Below are positions 23,072 through 60,149 of a stretch of DNA of 64,000 bases, in pieces. Made by a program: the position numbers and the translations under genes. Where the stretch lies: positions 7 through 64,006 of the forward strand of contig JBDLIC010000003.1 in assembly GCA_039715075.1 (NCBI GenBank), in the 5' to 3' direction. The notes beneath the pieces were generated by a model. That model was not told the DNA's origin. It was given only the letters and a program-made list of their open reading frames with translations, and did no database searches. This stretch comes from Nitrospirota bacterium (lineage in GTDB: Bacteria > Nitrospirota > Thermodesulfovibrionia > UBA6902). How positions within the stretch are numbered: position 1 is the first letter of the stretch; every line of letters starts with the position of its first letter.

Positions 23072-23307
23072 AAAGGATAAAAAGAGATTGACGATTGACG
23101 AAGGGAAAGAGGAAAGGAAAATGACGATTGATGATCAAGGAATGACTAATGACGTTTTTTTACTTCGTAATTCGTAAATCGTCAATCGCTATTCGTCAAT
23201 TTCCGTTTATCTTTCCCGCTTCCGCACTTTTCTTTTTTTCTTGACACGTATCTATATTTTTCATACCATTGTTTTTGAAAAGGAGTGGGATTTCTTAGGC
23301 CCATTTT
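23072..23307. repeat. Island repeat unit copy 1: ~145-nt attgacg-word palindrome plus conserved ~90-nt module
   Basis: aaaggataaaaag..attgacgattgacgaa...ttcgtcaatttccgtttatcttt, then cccgcttccgcacttttctttttttcttgacac...gggatttcttaggcccatttt. Confidence 0.85.
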
Positions 23308-23349
23308 CATTGATTGATAATTGTTAATTGATTAAAAGAGGGAACGACT

Positions 23350-23793
23350 ATGGAGCAGAACCGAGCCACGCAAATCATGGAGCAAGGCTGTACTTGATCG
23401 GAGGCTGTACTCCAGGCCGTGTGCCAGGAATTTGAGATAGAGATAGAGAACGATGTCCTTTCCCGAGTTGCCTTCGGCTTCGCAGGGGGGCTCGGCAACA
23501 CGGGGGCCGTCTGCGGTGCCGTCATTGGTGCTGTCATGGCTATCGGCCTTAAGCGCGGGCGGGCTGATACAATGGAAGAAAGTCTCCGCGAATTGGCGCT
23601 GCCGCGGGAGTTTCGCCGCCGCTTCGAGGCAGAGATGGGGACCATCAGCTGCCGTGAATTGACGGGGCTGGATTTGACCACAGAGGAGGGGCTTCAGCAG
23701 CTCATGAGGTCTGACATACCCCAGACGGTCTGCTTTCCAGCGGTTAGCACAGCTTACCGGCTGGTGGTGGAACTGCTGAAGGAAACCCCTTAG
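23350..23793 (+). CDS. C_GCAxxG_C_C-family redox protein with in-frame TGA (candidate Sec) at 23395..23397
   Basis: ATG 23350 (GAGGG RBS) is in frame with track ORF 23419..23793; the TGA aligns with the first family Cys (G-x-x-C-[AS]-[EQ]-[AS]-V-L); GAVCGAV, SCREL and TVCF are present. Confidence 0.65.
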
Positions 23794-24016
23794 AAAAGGA
23801 TAAAAAGCGATTGACGAATAGCGATTGACGATTTACGAAGTAAAAAAAACGGCATTAGTCATTTTTCTTTCCTCTTTCCCTTCGTCATTCGTCATTCGCT
23901 ATTCGTCAATCGTCAATTTCCTTTTATCTTTCCCGCTTCCACACTTTTATTTTTTTCTTGACACATGCCTATATTTATAATATCCACTATTTTAGTGGGG
24001 GGGTCTTAGGCCCATT
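23794..24016. repeat. Island repeat unit copy 2 (palindrome core inverted relative to copy 1)
   Basis: 23836..23880 is the reverse complement of 23103..23167 apart from a 21-nt indel and point differences; same downstream module cccgcttccacactttt..cttgacac..gtcttaggcccatt. Confidence 0.85.
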
Positions 24017-24046: not shown

Positions 24047-24081
24047 TTGACTTCATATATAATGTGGGTTACTATAGCTAT
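24047..24081 (+). promoter_or_regulatory. Putative sigma70 promoter with overlapping palindromic operator of the RHH-mazF module
   Basis: TTGACT-N17-TACTAT; 10-bp perfect palindrome tatagctata (24072..24081) overlaps the -10. Confidence 0.45.
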
Positions 24082-24108
24082 ATATATCCACATAACTTGG
24101 AGGTGTTT

Positions 24109-24339
24109 ATGAGAACCATTCAGATGACGTTAGATGATGACCTTGTGGAAGCTGTAGACAGGCTGGCAAAGAAATTAAAAACAACCCGTTCTGCTTTTAC
24201 ACGTAAGGCCTTGCGAGAAGCCATTAAACAAGTAAATATCAGATCGCTCGAAAATAGACATAAAAGAGGTTATGAACGTTATCCCGCAGGTAAAACAGAA
24301 TTCAGAGTTTGGGAATCAGAACAAGAATGGGGCGATTAA
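24109..24339 (+). CDS. Ribbon-helix-helix (CopG/MazE-like) antitoxin
   Basis: GGAGG RBS; MRTIQMTLDDDLVEAVDRLAKKLKTTRSAFTRKALREAI is RHH-like; TAATG overlap with the toxin gene. Confidence 0.8.
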   Translation: MRTIQMTLDDDLVEAVDRLAKKLKTTRSAFTRKALREAIKQVNIRSLENRHKRGYERYPAGKTEFRVWESEQEWGD

Positions 24340-24650
24340 TGAAAAGGGGAGAAGTCAGGTGGTATAAATTCAGGAATCCTGACAAAAAACGTCCAATAGT
24401 AATACTGACAAGAGATGCAATATTAGAATATTTAGGCGAGGTCACTATAGCACCAATAACATCAACTATCAGAAACATTCCAAGCGAAGTATTGCTTTCC
24501 ACTCAGGATGGAATGAAGAATGATTGTGCCATTAACTGCGATCACATTCAAACAGTTTCAAAATCAAGAATTGGTTCATTAATTATTACCTTATCTAATG
24601 ATAAACTTATAGATCTCCGCAGCGCTATATGCTTTACATTAAGTATTTAA
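24339..24650 (+). CDS. mazF: MazF/PemK-family endoribonuclease toxin
   Basis: KRGEVRWYKF...KRPIVILT...VTIAPITST pattern; start overlaps the antitoxin stop. Confidence 0.8.
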   Translation: MKRGEVRWYKFRNPDKKRPIVILTRDAILEYLGEVTIAPITSTIRNIPSEVLLSTQDGMKNDCAINCDHIQTVSKSRIGSLIITLSNDKLIDLRSAICFTLSI

Positions 24651-24746
24651 ATAATAAAAGGAGATAACCATTAGATACTCATGAAAGCTCAGTGGTGGCA
24701 GCACCTGCTACCATTTGATATAATTATTTAGTAACTTTTTAAATAA

Positions 24747-25202
24747 ATGGGAATAAAACAACTTATAGGGCTCATAAGCATACTTCTTATTTTTCTGGGC
24801 TGTGCAACTAAATGGCATCATCTGGAAGGGCATGGTAAGGAAGTACAAAAACTTGATGTATCAAGTTGCAAAGCAGAGGCATATTCATACGCAACAGATA
24901 AATTGACCGACCCTTCACATCCAAGAGGGCCCAAAGTGTGGAAATTTGCCTTCAGACTAAATTATGACGTTCATTATCACGAATGCATGAATAACAAAGG
25001 CTGGGAGTTGGCATATTATGACGGTAATGTTAAGGATAAGCATAAGTCTGATAGCGATAATTGCACAGTTCAGGGATGGAGATACGCGAGAGATAAATTA
25101 TTCGAACCTTCGCATCCACAAGGACCCAGAGGCTGGAGATATGGCTATAAACATAATTTAAAATCTCATTATCAGGAATGTATGCAGAGCAAAGGCTGGT
25201 AA
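24747..25202 (+). CDS. Lipoprotein with internal two-fold duplication
   Basis: Lipobox IFLGC; two ~50-aa repeats each with C...DKLxxPSHPxGPxxW...HYxECMxxKGW. Confidence 0.6.
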   Translation: MGIKQLIGLISILLIFLGCATKWHHLEGHGKEVQKLDVSSCKAEAYSYATDKLTDPSHPRGPKVWKFAFRLNYDVHYHECMNNKGWELAYYDGNVKDKHKSDSDNCTVQGWRYARDKLFEPSHPQGPRGWRYGYKHNLKSHYQECMQSKGW

Positions 25203-27620: not shown

Positions 27621-28640
27621 ATGGCTAATAAAGCAACAAACAAAAAACAGAAGAGCCTGGAAGAGACCCTTTGGGATTCTGCTAACAAGCTGCGTGGAAG
27701 CGTTGAACCATCAGAATACAAGCATGTGGTTCTGAGTCTTATCTTTCTGAAGTTTGCCAGTGAAAAATTTGAGCACCGGCGACAGGAACTGACTGATGAG
27801 GGGAAAGAGAAGTATCTCGATATGGTGGAATTTTACACTATGAAGAACGTTTTCTATCTTCCGGAGGAATCCCGCTGGGGCTATATCAAGAAGCACGCGA
27901 AGCAGGATGATATTGCCATCAAGATTGATACGGCTCTTCATACGGCTGAAAAGACGAACAAAGCTCTGGAAGGTGCATTACCGGACAACTATTTTTCCCG
28001 CTTGAACCTTGATGTCAGTAAACTGGCCGCATTGATAGATACAGATAAGAGTAAAGAAATCGATATTTTTAATGATGACTATCTTGCAAAGATAGAAAAG
28101 ATCAAACTGCCCAATACGAAAATTAAGCTCTTGCAGTATTTGCTGTCTAAAGCTATTGATGAATTTAAGAAGATCAATAAAATCAAAGGAATTGACTTTA
28201 CAAAAAAGTTTAATGCTTTAGTTGAGCAATACAATGACAGGAAAGAGCAGGATGTTTTGGTCAGTAATGTGCTTGAAGATTTCACAGGAGAAATTATTGA
28301 TCTATTTCATGCCATGAAGAAAGAGAAGGAATCTTTTGGTGATATGGGGATCGATCTTGAAGAGAAGGCTTTTTATGACATCCTCAAAGCACTGACTATT
28401 AAGTATGATTTTGAATACCCCGAGGACAAACTACTGAAATTGGCAAAGGGAGTAAAAAAGGTTGTTGACGATAAAGCGAAATATACAGACTGGAGCCATC
28501 GCGATGACATTAAAGCTGAACTAAAGGCGGATCTGATCATCCTTTTGGCAGAGAATGGCTACCCTCCCGTAGACCGGGATGAAGTGTATAAAGAAATCTT
28601 TGAGCAGGCTGAGAATTTTAAGAAGTATCAGGGAAAATAA
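27621..28640 (+). pseudogene. In-frame chimera of HsdM N-terminal domain and HsdR C-terminal domain (type I R-M remnant)
   Basis: N-terminal ~140 aa look like HsdM_N (LEETLWDSANKLRGSVEPSEYKHVVLSLIFLKF); the rest resembles the HsdR C-terminal helical domain (LVEQYNDRKEQ...EEKAFYDIL); no methylase, S or helicase/nuclease sequence. Confidence 0.6.
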
Positions 28641-43548: not shown

Positions 43549-46500
43549 CTATTTAACGATTTTTACCAGAATGTCTCCGAAACCCGGCATTCCGGTCATG
43601 GGGGTAAGATTGTCAGGATCAAAGAACTCGTTAATATTGGTGGTGTATTCACTTACATTATTAATAAAACCGAGCCCCGATGCATTTTGTCCTCCCGGGC
43701 CAAAGGCGGTTTTTATGACACCCGGCATTATTTCTTCAGTAAGGTAAACCTTTCCCTTCATGCTTTTCCCGGAGGGGTTTTCAAGAGTAATGACATCTCC
43801 TTTTTTTATGCCCAGTTTCCTGCCGTCACTTTTGCTGATTGCCAGCACAGGGATGGATACACTTCCAGCCTTGAAACGGGGTTTCATATTCCCGGGAATC
43901 CCGTATTTTTCCCGGAACCCGCTATTTTCCGGTAATGCATATTCGAACCCGTTATTCATCGGCTTCATGCATTCCGTTTCTGTTTCAGCAAGATAAGGAC
44001 AGACTGCTGTCATTGTCATGGCATGGTGTACCCTGCCTGATATCAGCTGGAAAGGGTATTCATCTGTTATGTTTTTGAATTTCGGGTTTTTCGGGTTCCA
44101 CAAGCAGTCGCTCCAGTAGAAAGTCACAGGCAGGCCGGTCCCGAACTTTTTGTTAATATTTTCAATATAGCTGAATCTGAATTCAAACTTTTTTGAACCG
44201 GTTGCGGGATATAGCCCGGATGGATCGTTGTTTGATTTTTTATACCGGTAATAACCTGCGGGCCATACTGCTACTCCATTATTTTTCCTGAGCCAGTCGA
44301 CTGTAAGCAGTGTGCCCTTTTTAATGACCTTCTTTCCCCACACGGCCGCGGGATTATCCGGTGTACCTACTATTAAGCATCCTTCAGGAAGGTCGGGATA
44401 GGGTAGAGGCCGGCCCAAATTGAAAAATCCCGGCGCCTCGCTTAATATCTCATTTATGAAATCTTCTTCGTCTTTATACCTTCCGGCAAAATCTTCAATC
44501 CTGATATCATGATCTCCATTTTTTATAAGGGCGTCCGAGAGCGTTATCATAAATTCATAAGGGGTCTTTGATTCATGGAGAGGCTTGATGACCTGGTCCC
44601 TTACAGCTATTTCCGGACTCATTGTGTAGACATCGCTCACGCCCATTCTCTCAAGGAAACCGGCATCGGGCAGGATAATGTCAGCATATTTGCCGGAGAC
44701 TGTGATGTGGGTGTCTGTGAACACCATCAATTCAAGAAGGTATTCACCATTTTCATCCCTGGCCGTCAGTGCGTCAACCCAGTCCGGGGTGCTGCCGGCT
44801 GTTATAACAGGGTTGCCTGCCCTGGTTATAAAAGCTTTGGCAGGATAGCTTAGGCCTTTAAAGGGGCCGTGTTTCAGTTTGGTCCCTTCCCTGATCTTTT
44901 TGGGAAGGTCTGCCAGCACCCCTTTCCATGCTGCGGGATATTCACCATACATGTCCTTGTTAAGCTCTGACAGTTTTCCGGAAACTTCATTGCCGTCAAC
45001 ATTTCTGCTGACAGTGTTTTCGAGGAAATGTTTTCCAGTGGTCCTGTTCCCCTTCTTTGCTTTTTGAGAATCTATGAAGACCAGGCCGCCCGGAACATCA
45101 ACGTTTCCTGTGATCAGGCAGAGTGCTGTCATGAGTATTGACGTGACATCACCATTCGTATGGTGCGCAGTGCCATGCATCCCTATTTCAATGGCAGCCG
45201 GTTTTGTAATGCCGAAGAGGTGGGACACCATTTTTATCTTTTCCGCTTGTATGCCTGTTTTTTCTTCCGCCCATTCCGGAGTGAAAAAGTGCATTTCGTT
45301 GGCAGGGTCAATATTTTTTGAATGGTCGAGAAATGCTGTCTTAAATTCTTCCCAGCCGACAGTATACTTTTTAATGAAATTATGGTTTAAATATTTCCGT
45401 TCAGGATCTGAAGAAGAGTCCTCACTGATAATACAGTAAAGCATTGCCGCAAGCAGTGAGGCATCTGCTCCGGGTATGATCGGGAGCCACAGGTCCGCAT
45501 GGGCCGCTGAATTGGTATAAGCAGGGTCGACCACTATATACTTGCAGCCGTTCTCTTCCCTGGCAGCAGGGATTCCGCGGGACATATAATTGAAACGGGT
45601 AGCAACGAGGGGGTTTGTCCCTATGTTGAGAAGCAGTTTTATGTCATGACTTTCTTTGAGATGCAGTTCACCTTCTTCATTTCTTATAAGAAACGGTCTC
45701 TGTATGTCAGGAAGCGGCCTCTCGTCACCTGTCATTATTCCCTGTCCCCACTTACGGTTGGGGTCGCATATGCTTCCGTGGTTATAGGTGTTTGGAGTGC
45801 CGAACGCATGGAACAGCCTGTAGTATGCTTCCCTGTCAGTAACATCGCCGCAGTCCATGAATACAGACTCAGCTCCGTATTTCTTTTTTATTTCTATCAG
45901 CTTTTTTGCAATGTAATCCGCTGCTTCATCCCAGGTGATTTCTTCCCACTTATCTTCCCCCCTGCTGCCGGACCTTTTTAAAGGAGTCTTTATCCTGTGG
46001 GGAGAGTATGTGAGCTGCAGGCCTGATGCGCCCTTTGCGCAGAAGGCCCCGTTATTAATTAATGAATGTGGGTTGCCGTAGATTTTTTTTGCCATGCCGT
46101 TTTCAACTACAACCGATATGCCGCATTCGGACGGACACATGGCATCTGACGTATAGACTGTTTTTGATTCTTCCGGCCTGACTGAAGATGGAGCAGACTT
46201 AATGCGTCTGGTGGAAGGGCCTTTGGTTACTTCATGGTTTTTTAATGATGTGTGATCAATATCTTTTTTTGATATATAAAAAACAGACGGACTTGTTTCC
46301 AGTTCAGGATTGAGGACTTTCAGCTGTTGTTTATTCATTTCAGTACTGATGCTGCTTTTTGGATCATTAATATCACCAAACAGGAGCGCCTTTCCCATGC
46401 AGCTCTGCACGCAGACAGGGCTTTCCCCGTTTTGCACCCTGCTGCAGCAAAAGTCGCACTTTTCAGCTTGTCCAGTAGCATGATTAATTTCAATCGCATC

Positions 46501-46818
46501 ATAAGGACATTTATCCTGGCACATCCCGCAGCCGGAGCAATTTTCATTGTTAATAATAACAATGCCGTCCTGGTTTTTATAAAGGGCGTTTTCTTCACAT
46601 GCATTAATGCAGGGGGCATTGTCGCAGTGATTGCAGAGACGGGGAAGAAATGTTTTTTTTGTTTCGGGAAACGGGCCTGAAATATGTGTGTGAACTTTGC
46701 ATCTAAAGAGCCCGAAAGGAATTTCATATTCAGTTTTACATGTGACCTGGCAGGCATAACACCCGATGCACCTGTCAAGGTTGATCAGCATGCCGTACCT
46801 TTTGTTACGTTTTGCCAT
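43549..46818 (-). CDS. Fused four-cluster ferredoxin (beta-like) and molybdopterin oxidoreductase (alpha-like), Psr/Phs/DMSO-reductase superfamily
   Basis: N-terminal ~190 aa with CIGCYACQVTC, CNHCDNAPC, CSGCGMCQDKCP, CDFC; then MopB-like domain (CPSECGISV...FCAKG); no twin-arginine signal. Confidence 0.8.
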   Translation of the reverse strand: MAKRNKRYGMLINLDRCIGCYACQVTCKTEYEIPFGLFRCKVHTHISGPFPETKKTFLPRLCNHCDNAPCINACEENALYKNQDGIVIINNENCSGCGMCQDKCPYDAIEINHATGQAEKCDFCCSRVQNGESPVCVQSCMGKALLFGDINDPKSSISTEMNKQQLKVLNPELETSPSVFYISKKDIDHTSLKNHEVTKGPSTRRIKSAPSSVRPEESKTVYTSDAMCPSECGISVVVENGMAKKIYGNPHSLINNGAFCAKGASGLQLTYSPHRIKTPLKRSGSRGEDKWEEITWDEAADYIAKKLIEIKKKYGAESVFMDCGDVTDREAYYRLFHAFGTPNTYNHGSICDPNRKWGQGIMTGDERPLPDIQRPFLIRNEEGELHLKESHDIKLLLNIGTNPLVATRFNYMSRGIPAAREENGCKYIVVDPAYTNSAAHADLWLPIIPGADASLLAAMLYCIISEDSSSDPERKYLNHNFIKKYTVGWEEFKTAFLDHSKNIDPANEMHFFTPEWAEEKTGIQAEKIKMVSHLFGITKPAAIEIGMHGTAHHTNGDVTSILMTALCLITGNVDVPGGLVFIDSQKAKKGNRTTGKHFLENTVSRNVDGNEVSGKLSELNKDMYGEYPAAWKGVLADLPKKIREGTKLKHGPFKGLSYPAKAFITRAGNPVITAGSTPDWVDALTARDENGEYLLELMVFTDTHITVSGKYADIILPDAGFLERMGVSDVYTMSPEIAVRDQVIKPLHESKTPYEFMITLSDALIKNGDHDIRIEDFAGRYKDEEDFINEILSEAPGFFNLGRPLPYPDLPEGCLIVGTPDNPAAVWGKKVIKKGTLLTVDWLRKNNGVAVWPAGYYRYKKSNNDPSGLYPATGSKKFEFRFSYIENINKKFGTGLPVTFYWSDCLWNPKNPKFKNITDEYPFQLISGRVHHAMTMTAVCPYLAETETECMKPMNNGFEYALPENSGFREKYGIPGNMKPRFKAGSVSIPVLAISKSDGRKLGIKKGDVITLENPSGKSMKGKVYLTEEIMPGVIKTAFGPGGQNASGLGFINNVSEYTTNINEFFDPDNLTPMTGMPGFGDILVKIVK

Positions 46819-59031: not shown

Positions 59032-59535
59032 TCAATAGGCAATCTTTATCCTGCCTATTTCATCTTTAGTAATATCAGACCATGCTTTCATTGTCCAGTA
59101 ACCTACCCACTTTTTGAATATACCTAGATTCTTCTGCCGTTCTTCTTCTGTTTTCCCGAGGCGTTCGTACATCTTGCCGGGTTTTCCGTCCTCTGTATTC
59201 CTGCCATCGTCAAGGGCCTTTGCCAGCGATCCGGCATCCGGCCATATGACAAAAGAAACCAGATGCGAGAAGCTGTCCATTTTAGGGCCGATTTTCTTTG
59301 CTGTATATTTCTCTACATCTTTTACGAATCCCATATGCTCAGGTGATTTTTTGCCGTGGCACTTTGCGCATTTTTTATCGAATATTGGCTTGATGCTGTT
59401 TGTATAAGTGACGCTGCTCTTTGCGGAGGCATGTTTTTCCTTGCCATGTGCAAATGAGTCTTTCAGAACAAACGGGGAAAGTAAAAGAGTTAGTGTGAAC
59501 ACCGGTACAGTAATTAAGTGGAAAAATGTTTTCAT
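59032..59535 (-). CDS. Secreted monoheme c-type cytochrome-like protein
   Basis: Signal peptide; IKPIFDKKCAKCHG (CxxCH); GGAGG RBS before ATG 59535. Confidence 0.65.
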   Translation of the reverse strand: MKTFFHLITVPVFTLTLLLSPFVLKDSFAHGKEKHASAKSSVTYTNSIKPIFDKKCAKCHGKKSPEHMGFVKDVEKYTAKKIGPKMDSFSHLVSFVIWPDAGSLAKALDDGRNTEDGKPGKMYERLGKTEEERQKNLGIFKKWVGYWTMKAWSDITKDEIGRIKIAY

Positions 59536-59549
59536 TTTATTCTCCCTCC

Positions 59550-60149
59550 TCATGAACTCATTAAGGCTTGAATAATTGATTTCATGTCATCAGTATTCCA
59601 TTCTCCATAACCGAGAGAAACTCCAATGATGTCTCCGTTTTTATCTATCAGGAACTTCATGGGGTGAGACCTTACACCGTAGCTGGCGCTCACCTGTTCA
59701 TCCTGATCCAGTAAAAAAGTGAAAGAAAGGTTTCTTTCCTCAATAAATTTTAGGACTGTTTCCTTTTCCTCTCCTACATTTATCGCCAGTATTGAAAACG
59801 GTTTACCTTTAAAATGCCGGCCCAGTTTTTCAAGAGAAGGCAACTCCTTCTTGCACCAGCCTCACCATGTTGCCCAGAAACTCAGCATAATCACATTGCC
59901 GCGCTGCTGCCTGAGATTGATTTGTTCTTCAGCGATAGACATCAAAGTGAAATCCGGGGGCAGTAGCGGTTTCTCGGGTTTCTGGATATTCATTGCCGTC
60001 ATTAGCGAGGAGAGATCAGTATCTGACAAGTTCTGATCAGCCCCGGCGGCTTCAGGAAGAGTCCCTGAAAATTCTCTGAACCCTCCGTATATACTGCCCA
60101 GAAGAATGAGGATTATTGTTATGGTGAATACCTTATTTGATATATGCAT
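59550..60149 (-). CDS. TlpA/ResA-like thioredoxin-fold protein with in-frame TGA (candidate Sec, UGWC motif) at 59862..59864
   Basis: Track ORFs 59862..60149 and 59550..59843 share one frame; the read-through gives VIMLSFWATW-U-GWCKKELPSLEKL, so the TGA occupies the first Cys of WCxxC; N-terminal membrane anchor. Confidence 0.7.

Follow-up and report, generated by a model that had tools for sequence, protein, structure and literature searches.

The window (the whole stretch of 64,000 nucleotides that was analysed) contains on its plus strand a frame of 147 codons that runs from an ATG at position 23350 to a stop codon at 23791-23793. This coding sequence (23350-23793), which belongs to the C_GCAxxG_C_C (seleno)protein family, is interrupted only once, by a TGA at codon 16 (23395-23397) that is aligned with the invariant first cysteine of the family and represents the inferred selenocysteine (Sec) codon. 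The listed ORF (23419-23793, 124 aa) is the portion of the same frame that lies 3' of the TGA. A Shine-Dalgarno-like GAGGG can be read directly at 23338-23342 and is separated from the ATG by a spacer of 7 nt. The original prediction had placed ATG 23350 behind this motif and in frame with both the TGA and the listed ORF, and the sequence confirms this arrangement. About 80 nt 5' of the ATG a consensus scan detected, with 10 of 12 matches, a sigma-70-like promoter candidate (TTGACA-17-TACCAT; 23241-23269, plus strand), which is a pattern match only. The read-through product begins MEQNRATQIMEQGCT-U-SEAVLQAVCQEF...

No RBS-like motif comparable to GAGGG was found in front of the GTG (23419-23421) that serves as 'start' of the annotated ORF. 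In the read-through product this GTG is the codon for Val24, and it is located within the loop, CGUGU, of a hairpin described below. As far as can be judged from the sequence, ATG 23350 is supported as the true start of the gene.

Directly 3' of the stop codon lies a 38-nt inverted repeat (23808-23845 / 23875-23912) with 87% complementarity and a 29-nt spacer. It consists of GCGATTGACGA-type direct repeats and could be a terminator in the form of a long hairpin, or else a small repeat element. Further downstream, small RHH/toxin-antitoxin-like ORFs (24064-25202) are found near a 339-aa ORF (27621-28640) with an HsdM N-terminal domain and a type I restriction HindI-like C-terminal domain. This region looks like a fragmentary defence island.

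Family membership and the TGA column

With the TGA read as Cys, residues 14-141 matched the Pfam model PF09719 (C_GCAxxG_C_C) over positions 1-117 of 118 (88.6 bits against a cutoff of 27; E=4e-25). The NCBIfam model TIGR01909 was matched over positions 1-118 of 120 with 84.9 bits, the curated cutoff being 47.4. An alignment of 82 diverse family members, with identities of 29-83% to its first sequence, contained exactly four invariant Cys columns. In the numbering of the window protein these are C16 (the TGA column), C55, C101 and C128, and the protein of 147 residues accordingly possesses U16, C55-G-A-V-I-G60 (corresponding to C-G-A-x-x-G), C101 and C128, that is, all four positions by which membership of the family is judged. 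It had been claimed from the single sequence that the TGA falls on the first family cysteine and that the other three are present. Both claims held: the TGA column was Cys in 82 of 82 members, and C55, C101 and C128 were each invariant. The proposed alignment of the read-through product to the family led to the same result, with Cys in the TGA column of 17 close full-length homologs as well as of the 82 diverse members.

Of 28 close homologs, those of full length had C (17), W (4) or G (1) in the column of Sec16. The four W residues presumably reflect calls of TGA with translation table 4 on short contigs. The single Gly was found in P0008, a close full-length homolog from an ENA contig (GYVGSEAVL); presumably TGA has changed to GGA or the sequence is in error, and with Gly the invariant residue would be lost. 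Of the 120 proteins in the database that are most closely related, approximately 98 were calls of 118-135 residues that begin after the TGA, and the truncated calls of close homologs mostly had 122-133 aa. Truncation at the UGA is therefore the usual annotation error for close homologs, and the short ORF listed in the window is a further instance of it.

A second cysteine near the TGA had led to the suggestion of a C-x-U selenenylsulfide between Cys14 and Sec16. This idea does not hold, since Cys14 lacks conservation: of 55 Sec-form orthologs, 39 have Tyr at this residue. In other words, Cys14 is not the partner of Sec16.

Conservation of the TGA and of the hairpin that follows it

When prokaryotic genomes were scanned, one for each species, 80 related loci were obtained. 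TGA was present at exactly codon 16 in 56 of them, while four had a Cys codon (L020, L030, L035 and L036) and one had TAA (L011). The carriers of TGA were distributed over more than 10 phyla and included Desulfobacterales, Nitrospiraceae, Anaerolineae/Dehalococcoidia, Gemmatimonadota and Acidobacteria as well as Zixiibacteriota, Rokubacteria, Cloacimonadota, Deferribacteres and others. In all 54 TGA loci that were analysed upstream, the 15 codons 5' of the TGA were free of stop codons. Exactly 15 codons before the TGA, 49 loci had ATG and 4 had GTG. Identity within these 15 codons was 82% at codon positions 1 and 2 and 63% at position 3. Because positions 1 and 2 are more conserved than position 3, the upstream codons bear the signature of translated sequence under coding-type selection. 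Judged from these sequences, the arrangement of TGA at codon 16 is not due to chance.

These data bear on the simplest alternative, namely that the UGA is a genuine stop, that the product is the 124-residue protein starting at GTG 23419 and that the upstream 15 codons are untranslated or encode a trivial peptide. Such a reading agrees with the ORF listing and with most public gene calls, and the absence of Sec machinery from the 64-kb window is in line with it. However, a 124-aa product would be devoid of one of the four invariant cysteines, and its GTG is merely the invariant Val24 codon in a hairpin loop, without the RBS that precedes ATG 23350. Moreover, the upstream 15 codons are open, show coding-type selection in 54 loci and are headed by a start codon exactly at position -15. 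A genuine stop at this position is thus highly unlikely.

The hairpin is located at 23411-23429 on the plus strand. Its 5' arm is UCCAGGC (23411-23417), its loop CGUGU (23418-23422) and its 3' arm GCCAGGA (23423-23429), and the loop begins 20 nt after the UGA. In an alignment of 57 Sec-form sequences the hairpin occupied columns 17-23 and 29-35, corresponding to 7 pairs, and the Sec forms shared a near-invariant CUGGCCGUGUGCCAG. For the 56 distinct Sec-form sequences 93.4% of the cells were paired, compared with 16-54% when the 3' partner was slid. Compensatory changes were found at one pair from GC to CG (L033) and from GC to UG (L015) and at another pair from CG to GC in three sequences, and G-U wobbles occurred at further pairs. 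The entropy of synonymous codons was 0.24 bit over codons 22-27 compared with 1.19 bit for the other 105 degenerate codons, Ala23 being encoded by GCC in 98%, Val24 by GTG in 100% and Leu22 by CTG in 94% of the sequences. Synonymous variation is suppressed exactly over the hairpin. The apical hairpin was also the minimum-energy structure in 96% of the Sec forms. In the small sample of four Cys-form loci the hairpin sequence was not kept, and L030 was able to fold a different hairpin.

According to the bSECIS model (bSECISearch of Zhang & Gladyshev, summarised in PMC13188914, Fig. 2 legend), bacterial SECIS elements have a loop of 3-9 nt with a G in the first two loop positions, a spacing of 16-37 nt between UGA and loop, an upper stem of at least 4 bp and a minimum free energy of -7.5 kcal/mol or lower. 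The element described here resembles this model in being a hairpin within the ORF directly 3' of the UGA, with a spacing of 20 nt, a 5-nt loop and G followed by U at loop positions 2-3. The consensus of the orthologs, with a 7-bp stem and -12.2 kcal/mol, conforms to the model in every respect and is accompanied by covariation. The window copy differs in that its upper stem of 3 bp and its energy of -7.1 kcal/mol are marginally outside the limits. Its stem consists of 3+3 pairs on account of an A23414·A23426 mismatch, which results from a Leu to Gln change (CUG to CAG). Since four other TGA-bearing genomes share the same variant (L002, L003, L048 and L064), the mismatch appears to be tolerated.

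The signal of this hairpin emerged only in the comparative alignment and not from folding of the single sequence. When 23395-23450 and 23380-23480 were folded alone they were no better than shuffled sequences (z = +0.49 and -0.42, respectively), so that the folding of 23395-23450 proposed at the outset was uninformative. At gathering thresholds no Rfam match was obtained in the whole window. The hairpin that had originally been put forward, GGCUG-UACUC-C(A)GGCC, does exist in the window. Across the orthologs, however, it was only 71% paired (columns 9-13/19-24) and no clearer than controls, with a covariation score below that of some slid versions; it was rejected as a SECIS, and the conserved SECIS-like element is instead the hairpin at 23411-23429 just 3' of it. 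A further candidate, the minimum-energy hairpin GGAG/CUCC of the single sequence, was rejected as well, being 75% paired and showing no covariation beyond shuffles.

Two of the loci deserve separate mention. The Nitrospiraceae bin899 chromosome (CP070644.1) possesses two copies of the gene, L007 with TGA and L011 (811107-831544) with TAA. Although its Sec codon reads TAA, L011 still has the hairpin; probably this paralog was inactivated only recently, or the assembly is in error here. L032, on a 2.8-kb contig labelled as a Thermoplasmatota archaeon (JAJISI010000120.1), combines TGA with a hairpin of the bacterial type within the ORF. Archaeal SECIS elements are normally located in the 3' UTR, and the position of the hairpin in L032 therefore suggests a binning error or a recent transfer.

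It might be thought that the gene of the window is likewise inactivated, the TGA being a nonsense mutation of TGC or TGT or an error of the assembly. The paralogous copy L011, with its TAA at codon 16, demonstrates that inactivated copies exist, and the A·A mismatch weakens the hairpin of the window. Against this, the TGA recurs in 56 genomes that were assembled independently of one another, the frames on either side of it being intact, and the A·A variant, common to four other TGA-bearing genomes, is apparently tolerated. Inactivation, by mutation or by error, consequently ranks as extremely unlikely.

The genes around the loci provided little guidance. In a search for a conserved neighbourhood at 62 loci only antisense shadow ORFs and promiscuous families (response regulators, kinases and ABC ATPases) were recurrent, and these at variable offsets. 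Gene context is thus no functional clue for the C_GCAxxG_C_C loci. The Sec-form genes themselves share 47-86% protein identity over more than 10 phyla together with a near-identical 15-nt SECIS core (CUGGCCGUGUGCCAG), and the N-terminus of the clade reads MEQNRAT..QGY(V/A)-U-SE(A/S)VLLAVCQEF. The similarity of both core and protein over such a range of phyla, together with the lack of conserved neighbours, suggests that the Sec-form gene may have spread horizontally by itself, as a unit of one gene.

A second UGA-containing gene and the probable decoding of Sec

Pfam annotation of approximately 45 ORFs did not reveal selA, selB or selD in the 64-kb window, in which only housekeeping genes were recognised by this search. 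These included gatB, ftsH, folP, RNase R, cobA/hemD, an S1 protein, ispH, cmk, aroA, tyrA and pheA as well as genes for glycogen enzymes, a molybdopterin oxidoreductase and a PccH cytochrome. The window had no tRNA at all according to ARAGORN, which did not detect a tRNA-Sec in 60 related loci either. The molybdopterin oxidoreductase (43549-46818, minus strand; 1089 aa) has a fused 4Fe-4S dicluster domain at its N-terminus, and its gene is without an internal TGA. If the product is formate-dehydrogenase-like, it would be a Cys rather than a Sec form.

A scan of the window for interrupted frames yielded one further convincing case at 59550-60149 on the minus strand. This gene of 199 codons would encode a TlpA/ResA-like thiol:disulfide oxidoreductase, a second candidate selenoprotein, and its UGA (59864-59862) is codon 96. 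The motif reads FWATW-U-GW-C, in which U96 takes the position of the first, invariant Cys of WCxxC. The UGA is followed after 16 nt by a hairpin, AGAAGG-AGUUG-CCUUCU (59851-59835, minus strand), with 6 bp and the loop AGUUG. Both the TGA and the hairpin are kept in the only close ortholog, L082 (84% identity), while more distant relatives have Cys. The protein resembles the UxxC selenoproteins of the TlpA/ResA type in having U at the first Cys of WCxxC and an N-terminal membrane anchor or signal. It did not reach the cutoff of any NCBIfam model (107 bits for ResA, where 170 are required), and its W-U-G-W-C motif is unlike those of the NCBIfam families WAxxUGC and TUGYCR. The stop codon of the gene and the start of the gene for a PccH-type cytochrome c (59032-59553) overlap, an arrangement consistent with the TlpA-like protein being a cytochrome-maturation reductase.

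Because the window thus contains two independent UGA codons, each aligned with Cys and each then followed by a suitably spaced hairpin, the organism very probably decodes Sec. Another explanation would be that the UGA is read through without Sec, either by genome-wide recoding of UGA to Trp or Gly or by near-cognate suppression. Four public gene calls do have W at the UGA codon, presumably through the choice of translation table 4. On the other hand, TGA is an ordinary stop in the window, where it terminates 6 of the 34 genes with Pfam support, and an internal TGA is confined to two genes, in each case on a catalytic or invariant Cys with a hairpin 3' of it. In addition, the carriers belong to many phyla that use the standard code. 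Read-through of this kind is the most improbable of the explanations considered here.

Predicted mechanism and relation to known selenoproteins

Taken together, we estimate the probability at about 0.9 that 23350-23793 is a selenoprotein gene whose annotation is too short owing to the UGA, and UGA 23395-23397 is very probably decoded as selenocysteine. The gene would begin at ATG 23350, end with the stop codon 23791-23793 and encode an all-helical C_GCAxxG_C_C protein of 147 residues, in which the Sec specified by the UGA would take the place of the first of the four invariant cysteines. The hairpin at 23411-23429 would act as a bacterial SECIS during translation. By analogy with the established bacterial mechanism, SelB·GTP·Sec-tRNA(Sec) would bind to the hairpin loop, and the UGA would then be read as Sec and not as a stop.

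An AlphaFold model of the Cys-form homolog P0023, which like the window protein has C-x-C at residues 14-16, was all-helical (pLDDT 96.4, pTM 0.91). Residue 16 lies at the N-terminus of helix 2, C55 and C101 are at helix N-termini as well, and C128 is inside the last helix. From this model we infer that Sec16 may be the reactive centre of a putative site of four Cys/Sec residues. Such a site might work as a selenenylsulfide/thiol couple of Sec16 with one of the invariant cysteines, or its residues might serve as the ligands of a metal or Fe-S centre. No significant match emerged from a sequence search of the PDB, in which the split-Soret cytochrome c 1H21 appeared only at E=0.84 over 30 residues, and a Foldseek comparison of the pLDDT-96 model with the PDB returned no structural relative, the best E being 1.0.

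The suggestion that the gene might represent a new Sec/Cys pair is no longer tenable, since the family is already known to contain selenoproteins. The NCBIfam name of TIGR01909 is 'C-GCAxxG-C-C family (seleno)protein', and a review from 2022 (PMC9312934) includes the family (pfam09719, WP_012158890.1) among the prokaryotic selenoprotein families. A review from 2026 (PMC13188914) distinguishes two Sec forms of the family, one of which is cited as 'putative redox-active protein' and attributed to a study of 2007. In that year Zhang & Gladyshev described, for the Olavius algarvensis delta-1 symbiont, a family called 'Putative redox protein' with three Sec genes and a predicted SECIS (PMC1976440). 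Going by the names, form 1 of the review appears to be this 2007 family. Since TGA in the column of the first Cys dominates among the closest genomes, Sec at this position is very likely one of the two published forms.

The window protein agrees with the selenoproteins of the TIGR01909/PF09719 family in the domain, which extends over the whole length, in its size of about 147 aa, in the four invariant Cys positions including C-G-A-x-x-G and in the single Sec per protein, specified by a UGA with a hairpin within the ORF. Apart from the A·A mismatch in the hairpin of the window copy, nothing substantive is different. Two other NCBIfam families share the C_GCAxxG_C_C domain, and membership of both was rejected. 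NF045501, the HUGP/GUXX-star fusion selenoprotein (E=6.5e-18), was matched only at model positions 11-145 of 236 with 65.1 bits against a cutoff of 325, and the window protein does not have the C-terminal fusion domain of this family. NF045669, the DVU_1555 family C-GCAxxG-C-C protein (E=2.6e-15), was matched with 56.4 bits, the curated cutoff being 103.

The gene at 23350-23793 leaves the known selenoproteome unchanged. The main value of the finding is one of annotation, since close homologs are systematically stored without their catalytic N-terminus. What novelty remains lies in the near-obligate use of Sec and the uniformity of the clade across phyla, and in a fold without a solved relative. 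We would suggest, tentatively and as a combination that is itself rather doubtful, that the clade may be an almost obligately Sec-containing lineage in which gene and SECIS have spread horizontally as a unit, and that the fold could stand for a kind of selenium redox or metal site that has not been characterised so far. The well-conserved Sec/SECIS module would be a convenient handle on the biochemical function of the family.
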